Source: Candidatus Bathyarchaeota archaeon (lineage in GTDB: Archaea; Thermoproteota; Bathyarchaeia; 40CM-2-53-6). From it: DNA of 64,000 nucleotides. The position numbers were made by a program, and so were the translations under genes. The notes below the pieces were generated by a model. It searched no databases, was not told where the DNA came from, and saw only the letters and a program-made list of their open reading frames with translations. The stretch spans positions 192,001 through 256,000 of the forward strand of contig CAVTBR010000003.1 of the NCBI GenBank assembly GCA_963733055.1, in the 5' to 3' direction. Shown piece after piece: positions 36,596-58,746 of this stretch (position 1 is its first letter; the number at the start of each line of letters is the position of its first letter).

Positions 36596-37153
36596 TCAAG
36601 CTTTGAACCATCGGAATACCAAGTAATCGACCTTGCTGCGTCGGTTTGGCACGGCTATGGTGAACTGTTTGCGGACGGTTGTTGCGAGGCGTCCCGCAAG
36701 AACTACCTCGAATGGGCCCATAGTTTCCTGTTCCTTCTTCACGGTCACTATAAACGGCGCATGGTCGATCCCTGGGCCATGCTCATAGATTGCGAAATCT
36801 GAACCGAACCTGATTCCTGGCGTCACGATGAGTCCCTTCTCGCGAAGGTTCTCGTAAGCGCTGTAACCTAAGTTGAACTGTTTGTAAGTGTGATTAGCGA
36901 GTTTGAGTAGTTTCGCCCTAGGAACTGACTTGCCCGTCTCTGCATCGGTTACTCGAATGATCTTACGGTCGAGGAGATACAAGCCCTCCATTAGATCGAG
37001 AATGAGAGGGGCTTTGAATTCCTGTTCAGGTTTCGGTTTTGGGATTCCTACGGGTTTCCCGAAGAAACCCATGCGGTAGAGATGTACCGCTTCTGTAAAG
37101 TTCCATACGACGAGCCTAGTGCCGATTAGTTCGGCTGAAGTCACGTCTGCCAT
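36596..37153 (-). CDS. endA: tRNA splicing endonuclease catalytic alpha subunit with crenarchaeal-specific loop
   Basis: FGSDF.IYEHGPGIDHA (Tyr/His), RLA..VRK (Lys), GKPVGIPKPK loop. Confidence 0.92.
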   Translation of the reverse strand: MADVTSAELIGTRLVVWNFTEAVHLYRMGFFGKPVGIPKPKPEQEFKAPLILDLMEGLYLLDRKIIRVTDAETGKSVPRAKLLKLANHTYKQFNLGYSAYENLREKGLIVTPGIRFGSDFAIYEHGPGIDHAPFIVTVKKEQETMGPFEVVLAGRLATTVRKQFTIAVPNRRSKVDYLVFRWFKA

Positions 37154-56726: not shown

Positions 56727-56979
56727 TCGTTGCATGAGAATCTCGCCCCAACGGATATTTCTCCTTATTGGCACAGTTAGAATTCGCAATTCAAATGATT
56801 AAGCGCACCCTCTTTGAACCGACGGCAACCATGCAGTACTCTTGGCAAAGATGAGTCCTGACGATACCCCGTAGGAGCATACCCCCTCTGATGATTCCTT
56901 ACAAAACTATTTCCAGATTTCTGATGCGAATCATGCTTATAATTTGCTTGAGAATCCTTGTGGGAGGTGATGATCAAAG

Positions 56980-58153
56980 ATGGGAATCAAAAATCTGCGC
57001 ATAGCCCATGTTTTCAATCTGGCGAAAGAGCCGACACGGCTCCGTTAATGATGGATATTCCGTTTGCAAGGGTTTGCGCAAACTTGGGGTTGACTCAGAC
57101 CTCATCATAGAGAGGCCCTCGCACGTAGCCAGCCTTCCGCAGTGGGAAGATGGCGAGGTTGACCTAAGCCGTCTTGGGGACCCGTATGACCCAAATTGGG
57201 ACGCATTTGAATGGCCCCAGCCAGACTGGATCCGAGTTTGGGATGACAGAAAGTTATGGTTCCCGTACTCCAGAACTCTTCGATGGTCGTCCCTCCTGCT
57301 TATGCTTCGAGACTACGACCTGATAATCGGGCACGCGCCCTTCGCAAAGACAGCCGGCCTGTACAGCAAGCTCTACCGCAAGCGCTACATTATCTTTGAG
57401 GCAGGGTGGATCAGATACCTTCCAATGAAATGGAGAGGATATGCCGCAGCTAGAAAGGGTTACCGCGACGCAGCGATGATCCTCTTCACTAACGTGGATA
57501 CAGAACCGATGCTCATCGAACAGGGCTACTCGAAGATTGCGTACACCCCCTTCGCTATAGACACAGACAAGTACACTCCTTCACAATCTCCCCCACCCGA
57601 TACGCCCACGTTCTTTCACCCGTCTCGCCAGGACTGGCCTGAGAAAGGAAATGACCGACTCTTGAGAGGCTTCGCAAAGTACGTTCAACGGAACCGAAGG
57701 GCGAAACTTGTCGCCGTGGAATGGTACCAGTCCCCAGAGGACCTGGGAAAAAGCAAGCAACTTGTCTCGGAACTCGGAATACAGGAAAACGTCACATGGG
57801 TGCCTGTGATGCCCAAGGGCAAACTGATAGAGTTCTATCAAAAGTCTACGGCCGTCTTCGACCAATTTCTTTTCGGAGCCTTTGGAACGACGACCCCAGA
57901 GGCCATGAGCTGCGGTAGGCCGGTGGTTGGTTACGTGGAGAACAAATATTGGCAGAAGTACCATGCGGAACCACCACCTGTACTAAACGCATCTTCAGCG
58001 GTCGAAATCTTTGATGCAATGGTGAAATTGGAAGACCAGCAACTGCAAGTCGATCAGGGAAGACGTGGACGGGAATGGATAATGCGGAATTGTGATTGCT
58101 CGCTCGTAGCGTCTCAGCAACTTGAGGTATACAAGAAAGTTCTCGAACAGTGA
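56980..58153 (+). CDS. GT4 glycosyltransferase (383 aa after splicing), interrupted by a 22-nt BHB-type intron
   Basis: GGAGGTGA RBS + MGIKNLRIAHVFNLA|NDGYS; KGND, DQF..G.FG...EAMSCG.PV. Confidence 0.85.
57027..57048 (+). other. Candidate archaeal (endonuclease-spliced) mRNA intron
   Basis: GGCG AA|A GAGCCG-ACA-CGGCTC CGTT AA|T: 4-bp helix, two 3-nt bulges, 6-bp hairpin. Confidence 0.7.
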
Positions 58154-58263: not shown

Positions 58264-58746
58264 ATGGTAAAGTTACGCTTTGTGGCTAGACTCTGGTTCT
58301 ACTTCAGGATGGGGTATTCAACATATCTTACCTTTCTCTTAGGATACGTCTCCACACTGATTACAGTCTATTACCTCGCTATCAAGAACATCCCTGCCCT
58401 GCTCGATATCTTCCCCAAGTTTGTCCCGTTTGCTCTGCTTTCAACTGTGATCGGTGTTCCATTTGCGATTGTAATAGGATGGTTGCATCTCAAAAGAAGT
58501 CTAGCTTACAGTTCCGAGATGGACATAGGAGTGGAGTCAAACCCGTATTACTACAAGTTCCCCCCAGGGTACACCTTAGAGGTGTGGGGCCCAGTCTATC
58601 TCGAACTGCTCCTACAGATGAAGAAGCTTCTAGCCGCGAACAAACTACTCAACGATGAAGAAAGAAAACGTATTGAAAACCTCGAGGAGAAACTACGAAT
58701 ATTAAATGAGGGAGGATACATCGGGCAACCGAGAAGACGTCTATAA
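58264..58746 (+). CDS. Two-TM hypothetical protein
   Basis: WFYFRMGYSTY, GW.H.K, ESNPYYYK. Confidence 0.75.
   Translation: MVKLRFVARLWFYFRMGYSTYLTFLLGYVSTLITVYYLAIKNIPALLDIFPKFVPFALLSTVIGVPFAIVIGWLHLKRSLAYSSEMDIGVESNPYYYKFPPGYTLEVWGPVYLELLLQMKKLLAANKLLNDEERKRIENLEEKLRILNEGGYIGQPRRRL

Follow-up and report, generated by a model that had tools for sequence, protein, structure and literature searches.

A probable bulge-helix-bulge mini-intron in the coding sequence of a glycosyltransferase gene of Bathyarchaeia

We analysed a stretch of 64,000 nucleotides (nt) from a Candidatus Bathyarchaeota archaeon (assembly GCA_963733055.1, contig CAVTBR010000003.1, positions 192,001 to 256,000 of the forward strand), hereafter the window, in which a gene for a GT-B group-1 glycosyltransferase is interrupted close to its 5′ end by a 22-nt insert. 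The insert, at positions 57027-57048 of the window, is most probably (at a probability of roughly 0.8, from comparison of sequences) a bulge-helix-bulge (BHB) mini-intron lying within the coding sequence, and the comparative evidence spans both the structure of the motif and the site at which it would be cut. We infer splicing of the transcript, that is, cleavage and ligation, from the way in which removal of the insert restores the reading frame and a conserved codon in related genes.

Results

A 22-nt insert separates two parts of one reading frame

The source genome comprises 2.88 Mb in 3 contigs with 50% G+C. The gene is laid out as follows.

56963..56970, + strand: Shine-Dalgarno-like sequence GGAGGTGA, read off the sequence, 9 nt upstream of the start codon
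56980..57026, + strand: predicted exon 1, with the ATG start, 15 codons (MGIKNLRIAHVFNLA) and the first two bases (AA) of an Asn codon
57027..57048, + strand: candidate intron of 22 nt, phase 2, within the codon of Asn16
57049..58153, + strand: predicted exon 2, with the last base of the Asn codon, 367 codons and the stop, encoding the body of the GT-B group-1 glycosyltransferase

In the unspliced sequence, the frame that opens at ATG 56980 runs through MGIKNLRIAHVFNLA into KEPTRLR and ends with a TAA at 57046-48, and the body is contained in an open reading frame (ORF) at 57008-58153 whose frame differs from that of exon 1 and which reads ..NDGYSVCKGLRKLG.. across this region. Excision of 57027-57048 yields 15 + 368 = 383 codons in a single frame. 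A first-pass annotation of the window had proposed this arrangement of ribosome-binding site, start codon at 56980, body in another frame, 22-nt insert and 383-amino-acid (aa) product, and the sequence and its ORFs bore it out. The body matched the Pfam family PF00534 (Glycos_transf_1; 3.2e-11, 43.5 bits against a curated cut-off of 26.4) and, at 7.4e-7, PF13692; it is placed in GT-B group 1 by the PF00534 score above the cut-off together with the two Rossmann-like halves seen in the model of a homolog, P0014.

Homologs that lack the insert define where it lies. The insert-free set consisted of the best five loci in 60 relatives of the genome (L004-L008, 33-50% tblastn identity) and of the metagenome loci L030-L034 (49-60%), and all 10 of these loci, at 33-60% identity, were contiguous through ..FN(L/M)A|N(D/N).., with neither gap nor insert, as the first-pass annotation had anticipated. 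Since these homologs align gap-free, the insert can be placed precisely at the junction of the Ala and Asn codons. Among the 60 relatives, the best homolog shows 52% identity and has no interruption; Asn11 does not vary across 18 uninterrupted homologs, and the database relatives of at most 60% identity that have complete N-termini begin MRIAHVFNLANDGY... One member of the insert-free set, L007 (relative G006, C18), has its homolog in two frames (residues 1-102 vs 95-368), a frameshift-like break distant from the intron site.

The insert and its flanks can be read as a relaxed BHB motif

Along 57021-57049 the parts of the motif follow one another in the exact order of an archaeal BHB, and the features concerned are listed here.

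57021..57024, + strand: 5′ strand of the central helix (H), GGCG, exon bases; identical in 5/5 insert-bearing sequences and 100% paired
57025..57027, + strand: bulge 1, AAA, invariant in 5/5; predicted 5′ cut after 57026, by a rule calibrated on cbf5
57028..57042, + strand: intron hairpin (h′) of 6 bp, GAGCCG (57028-33), loop ACA and CGGCTC (57037-42)
57043..57046, + strand: 3′ strand of H, CGTT, intron bases; CGTT, CGTC or CGCC in orthologs, pairing with GGCG throughout
57047..57049, + strand: bulge 2, AAT (ATT in ortholog L024); predicted 3′ cut after 57048
57010..57016, + strand: 5′ strand of a possible displaced outer helix, pairing with 57049-57056 in the RNAalifold consensus of 5 sequences; weak evidence

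Helix H is composed of 2 G-C and 2 G-U pairs, and cutting after the second base of both bulges would remove 22 nt and join AA to T as an Asn codon. The fold put forward by the first-pass annotation, with its GGCG/CGTT helix, two bulges and GAGCCG/CGGCTC hairpin, parses exactly, and RNAalifold recovered H, the AAA bulge and h′ without being supplied a structure. To count equally good motifs at length 22 we required a 4-bp H with at least two Watson-Crick pairs, two 3-nt bulges and a hairpin of 6 bp or more, and found them at 344 of 5,768,374 positions of the own genome (6.0e-5); as the homolog alignment pins the place and the length of the insert to 3 equivalent registers, the chance of such a motif here is about 2e-4. 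A search of the own genome for the insert as a repeat gave none, the best other match being 13 nt long. On the 3′ side nothing abuts the AAT or ATT that follows H, and the outer helix of the RNAalifold consensus, 57010-16/57049-56, sits beyond a 3-nt internal loop, with T57049 paired. The motif thus counts as 'relaxed' on this side, and the failure to find a canonical exon-exon helix agrees with the relaxed outer helix noted at first pass. A relaxed BHB motif is likewise described for cbf5 in the part of a review available to us (PMC10485636).

The first exon is conserved and one cut register restores Asn

Four orthologs retain the exon 1 residues RIAHVFN(L/M)A while their codons differ synonymously at third positions. 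This conservation stands in a frame that can be joined to the body only by removal of the 22 nt, which argues that exon 1 is translated. An AlphaFold model of P0014, a homolog without the interruption (predicted local distance difference test score, pLDDT, 92.3), shows residues 3-6 as strand β1 and puts the intron site in the β1/α1 loop; exon 1 thus corresponds to β1 of the N-terminal Rossmann domain, and a protein made without it would lose a core strand. The predicted model was used for the N-terminus because a sequence search of solved structures matched the C-terminal half of the enzyme only. The register of the cut is set by L024, in which bulge 2 is ATT: among three possible 22-nt deletions, only a cut after the second bulge base yields Asn. 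At the level of sequence, the rule of cutting after the second base of each bulge, which the first-pass annotation had applied, is confirmed by this ortholog.

The insert is retained in one clade of the family

A 22-nt insert at the same site was present in all four complete metagenome orthologs, L024 (84% identity), L026 (71%), L027 (68%) and L028 (67%), and the orthologs on two further contigs, L025 and L029, start within the insert (positions 1-15). The two contigs, which count as one further contig sequence, break off at one shared base within the hairpin and agree in all of their first 60 bases; the common end could reflect differences between strains or a break of the assembly at the short palindrome. 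Scans of species-representative genomes gave zero further orthologs by protein pattern and zero by intron DNA pattern.

Among the 5 insert-bearing sequences the loops of the hairpin vary freely, and h′ measures 4-6 bp, with its first 4 pairs kept in every sequence and with compensatory changes at pair 2 (A-U to G-C) and at pair 5 (C-G to U-A or U-G). On the named structure, pairing amounted to 100% for H (20/20 cells, 5 sequences) and 87.5% for h′, with two pairs altered on both sides, and it fell from 92% to 29-46% when the partners were shifted by 1-3 columns. The Ala codon that pairs in H is GCG in 5/5 insert-bearing loci, and GCG, GCC and GCA occur 4, 3 and 3 times in the 10 insert-free loci. 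The gene is under selection: in the two pairs that could be measured, the body gave ratios of nonsynonymous to synonymous substitution (dN/dS) of 0.12 (window vs L024) and 0.08 (L027 vs L028). Synonymous sites are saturated when subclades are compared (proportion of synonymous differences, pS, 0.80-0.89), and the length and the stems of the insert are nonetheless retained. That length, helices and compensatory pairs have been kept across such divergence makes a neutral 22-nt scar unlikely.

In a maximum-likelihood gene tree of 56 proteins, every insert-bearing locus fell within one starred clade of 17 rows, and the adjacent rows whose N-terminus is complete (L030/P0013, P0014 and P0018) are uninterrupted. 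A single clade of insert-bearing loci beside uninterrupted neighbours fits one gain, and we infer from this topology that the glycosyltransferase family acquired the intron a single time, in the ancestor of one of its clades. The database proteins of the intron clade are, in 12/12 cases, either N-terminally truncated or read through the insert: relatives of 65-84% identity appear as truncated calls, for example of 359 aa starting LRKLGV, and P0007 alone reads through the insert in the body frame.

The cbf5 gene as internal control

The cbf5 gene of the same genome (C2; L023 1796-1814, minus strand) is interrupted after GHGGTL by a 19-nt insert of its own, with an H of CCCT/GGGG, bulges AGA and CAA, and a hairpin GAC-CTCATA-GTC. 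This insert splits the codon of the catalytic Asp between letters 1 and 2, and the same cut rule restores ..TL D PKVTG... Its position is the one given for crenarchaeal cbf5 introns in the portion of PMC2738675 at hand. We surveyed 55 related cbf5 loci, of which 54 were evaluable, with a test that asked for a 4-bp H and a hairpin of 3 bp or more. An insert of 19-21 nt was present in 31/54 and the gene was contiguous in 23/54; the BHB test was passed by 29 of the 31 inserts, and GAT or GAC was restored in all 31. Compensatory change is rich in these inserts (L044-L069, L086, L090, L096-L098), as in H CCCT/GGGG to CTCT/GGAG. The insert-bearing records are nearly all titled Bathyarchaeia or Bathyarchaeota, and such a lineage-wide mini-insert in cbf5 implies that the lineage must already splice mini-BHB introns from an mRNA. 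A report of a cbf5 intron in Bathyarchaeia was not found in the literature searched. The glycosyltransferase intron falls outside the cbf5 family, having another host gene in a genome whose cbf5 carries a separate intron.

Four loci of the survey (L045, L047, L070 and L090) hold Bathyarchaeia-type cbf5 genes at 69-94% identity in records titled as bacteria or Methanobacteriota, three of them being evaluable and carrying the mini-intron; the contigs were probably mis-binned.

Splicing machinery encoded by the genome

The genome encodes two paralogs of the archaeal splicing endonuclease EndA, both of which exceed the Pfam cut-offs for the N- and C-terminal endonuclease domains, and one of these lies in the window.

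36596..37153, - strand: gene for the catalytic (α) subunit of EndA, Pfam PF01974 and PF02778

The best solved relatives of the window EndA were 3p1z_B (3.6e-39), 2cv8_A, 3ajv_B and 2zyz_B (E = 3.6e-39 to 5e-28), which we take to be crenarchaeal enzymes, and the alignment with them is gap-free across the loop GKPVGIPKPKPEQEF. As judged by sequence, this α subunit is most like the solved enzymes of the hetero-oligomer type. In the second paralog the catalytic His is not obvious by eye, as in a structural β subunit, and on this inspection the paralog would be a non-catalytic β subunit. RtcB is encoded and intact (577 bits), and a tRNA-Val of the genome has a 15-nt BHB intron. A comparison with tRNA introns based on ARAGORN calls was dropped, as a strict BHB was seen in only 2/18 and the calls were judged unreliable. 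Within the window, 20 kb separate the catalytic EndA gene from the intron-bearing gene downstream of it, a proximity that is probably coincidence.

Genome-wide scans for further introns

Segments whose removal would fuse two frames were sought throughout the genome. Under a lax filter, 12,906 of 12.63 million segments held a BHB, as many as a chance rate of 1e-3 predicts. When segments were filtered by codon usage and had to contain a hairpin of 4 bp or more, 800 hits were counted vs 805-913 in six slid controls, and a scan for short exons that required hairpins of 5 bp or more gave 124 hits vs 123-138 in slid controls, with 4 of 6 strands covered. Of the 800 hits, 88 combined a hairpin of 5 bp or more with 40 or more well-scoring codons in each exon, and 21 of the 88 were no longer than 31 nt. 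Eleven of these 21 short candidates were read closely by eye, without a family search, and gave no new intron: 7 were operon junctions, 2 clear 1-nt frameshifts and 2 possible frameshifts; the other 10/21 contained nothing recognisable. The scan by frame repair is blind to introns with a length divisible by 3 and would miss hairpins of 3 bp like that of cbf5. The first-pass annotation had suggested that mini-introns have spread into mRNAs of this lineage; given that the counts did not exceed the slid controls, this holds for cbf5 and the glycosyltransferase gene only.

Breaks that look like 1-nt frameshifts, beyond which the conserved motif continues, were seen in the genes for pyruvate:ferredoxin oxidoreductase alpha (C1 ~1,549,990, +) and for an M20 peptidase (C1 ~751,950, +), and each could be either an indel error of the assembly or a pseudogene.

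Genes near the glycosyltransferase

The neighbours of the glycosyltransferase gene include a sugar nucleotidyltransferase, a methyltransferase and an asparagine synthase-like gene, and a role of the enzyme in surface glycans would be a guess from its family and these neighbours. Directly downstream, an ORF of 160 aa (58264-58746, +) is membrane-protein-like and gave no Pfam match.

Discussion

Proposed mechanism and alternative explanations

In the mechanism that we propose, the gene would be transcribed with the insert included, and in the pre-mRNA the exon bases GGCG and the intron bases CGTT would form the 4-bp central helix, flanked by two 3-nt bulges and closed by the hairpin. An EndA of the (αβ)2 type would then cleave after the second base of each bulge and RtcB would ligate the exons, so that the invariant Asn codon (AA + T) would be rebuilt and exon 1 brought into frame with the 368-codon body to give an enzyme of 383 aa. 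From unspliced mRNA, only a peptide of 22 aa would be made.

Several observations weigh against a spliced intron. The minimum free energy (MFE) of the fold, -15.8 kcal/mol, is not unusual (z = -1.07, with 24/200 shuffles folding equally well), and the 3′ bulge is without a canonical outer helix to close it. The MFE fold holds H and h′, with H lengthened to 5 bp by U57020-A57047, and both it and the RNAalifold fold favour this 5-bp H with a 3′ bulge of 1 nt. The covariation statistics are thin, coming from 5-6 related sequences, and among 500 shuffles the observed value was reached by 256 for double-changed pairs, by 9 for the covariation score and by 25 for percent paired. In the protein database a full-length protein of the intron clade is absent. 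The assembly is not error-free, with 1-nt frameshifts in core genes. A search of sequencing runs for the locus listed no RNA run; it returned 1 DNA contig run with one third of the sampled words and 2 same-study runs with next to none, and the three together cover 57295-57487 only, not the junction.

Three other explanations were weighed. The insert might be a tolerated insertion lesion, in which case exon 1 would be dead or encode a free peptide and a truncated enzyme would start at ATG 57008 or at the LRKLG start. ATG 57008 does open an ORF of 381 aa, calls of 359 aa and 381 aa of such a type stand in the databases, and the search of sequencing runs listed none of RNA. A start of the 57008 type is not conserved, however: L024 has a stop in that frame within the insert, L026 and L028 are without the ATG, and among the four insert-bearing orthologs the frame is open from an ATG in L027 only. 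Moreover, exon 1 retains the N-terminal amino acids of the family through synonymous changes and encodes the Rossmann-core strand β1, and a neutral scar would be expected to lose its length, helices and compensatory pairs over saturated synonymous divergence; we therefore regard a lesion as unlikely. A further explanation is translational recoding, by which a +1 frameshift or a bypassing of the hairpin would join the frames without RNA splicing; ribosomal bypassing of a hairpin occurs in phage T4 gene 60. A stable hairpin does stand immediately after the last codon of exon 1, and the frames do differ by +1. Against this, a TAG interrupts the body frame inside the insert of L024, and another interrupts the exon-1 frame inside that of L027; since the shift would have to follow the first of these and precede the second, no single frameshift site serves all orthologs. 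A frameshift would also add 7 residues that are not conserved and are absent from the uninterrupted homologs, the take-off and landing codons for bypassing are unmatched (GCG or AAA vs GTT, AAT or ATT), and the Asn of L024 is rebuilt by the BHB cut only. Recoding thus appears highly improbable.

An artefact of assembly or sequencing would be compatible with the 1-nt frameshifts in the pyruvate:ferredoxin oxidoreductase alpha and M20 peptidase genes and with a site not covered by the reads. Four other metagenome contigs carry the insert at the same site, each with its own sequence variants, and an insert of 22 nt common to independent assemblies is not the kind of error that a 1-nt indel is, which leaves an artefact scarcely credible.

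Significance

If the BHB mini-intron is real, it would represent a second kind of archaeal protein gene with an intron in the coding sequence, in an accessory gene and in a mesophilic soil host of the Bathyarchaeia. With insert-free and insert-bearing relatives adjacent on the gene tree, the gain of the intron would be datable, which bears on how introns spread. There is a practical side as well, in that the database protein calls of the intron clade are truncated or run through the insert in all 12 rows.

A broader and decidedly speculative idea is that BHB mini-introns colonise new protein genes in Bathyarchaeia, that the splice acts as a gate of the XBP1/HAC1 kind, and that mRNA splicing is a regular, mis-annotated layer of gene expression in the lineage; we hold this to be doubtful. 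If it were true, the output of the glycan enzyme would depend on EndA/RtcB activity and, together with the lineage-wide cbf5 mini-intron, it would mean systematic mis-annotation in a major uncultured archaeal class.

Comparison with known systems

The BHB intron of the cbf5 pre-mRNA of Crenarchaeota was reportedly described by Watanabe in 2002, and Yoshinari is said to have treated the crenarchaeal cbf5 pre-mRNA intron in 2006. In the sections available of the 2009 paper by Yokobori, cbf5 is the sole gene with confirmed splicing up to that time (PMC2738675), and in those of the 2020 paper by Schwarz it is the only other BHB mRNA intron besides a 46-nt leader intron of HVO_1309 (PMC7714728). 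The mRNA substrates of the archaeal splicing endonuclease named in the accessible parts of two sources are cbf5, in its coding sequence, and the HVO_1309 leader (PMC7714728, PMC10485636), and the excerpt of the 2023 review expects more mRNA substrates to emerge (PMC10485636). Neither for glycosyltransferase genes nor for Bathyarchaeia did the literature searched yield a report of an mRNA BHB intron.

The glycosyltransferase intron resembles the crenarchaeal cbf5 intron in that both are short, lie in a coding sequence, have a relaxed BHB, occur in hosts with a hetero-oligomeric EndA and restore a conserved codon when removed. In contrast to cbf5, the host gene is accessory and not a core pseudouridine synthase, the lineage is Bathyarchaeia, the intron measures 22 nt and interrupts an Asn codon in phase 2 after the first 15 codons, and it is confined to one clade of a gene family. 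The 46-nt BHB intron in the 5′ untranslated region of HVO_1309 of Haloferax volcanii is alike in that it, too, is an mRNA target of the archaeal splicing endonuclease outside cbf5 (excerpts of PMC7714728 and PMC10485636). Unlike the glycosyltransferase intron, it lies in an untranslated leader and leaves the reading frame unaffected, and it was demonstrated by circular RNA sequencing (circRNA-seq) and in vitro cleavage, according to the portion of PMC7714728 available, whereas the glycosyltransferase case is comparative only.

With the BHB introns of archaeal tRNAs, including the non-canonical ones, the glycosyltransferase intron shares the motif, the cut rule and the enzymes, and its 22 nt fall within the size range of tRNA introns; it differs in lying in an mRNA without a tRNA body and in having a displaced outer helix. 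In eukaryotes, the XBP1 and HAC1 mRNAs contain a short, structured intron, of 26 nt in XBP1, that is cut by an endonuclease and joined by an RtcB-type ligase, with a switch of frame. The likeness to the glycosyltransferase gene is that a frame-switching excision would decide which protein is made. The differences are that the endonuclease of XBP1/HAC1 is IRE1, that the motif is a twin stem-loop and that regulation by stress has been shown for XBP1/HAC1.

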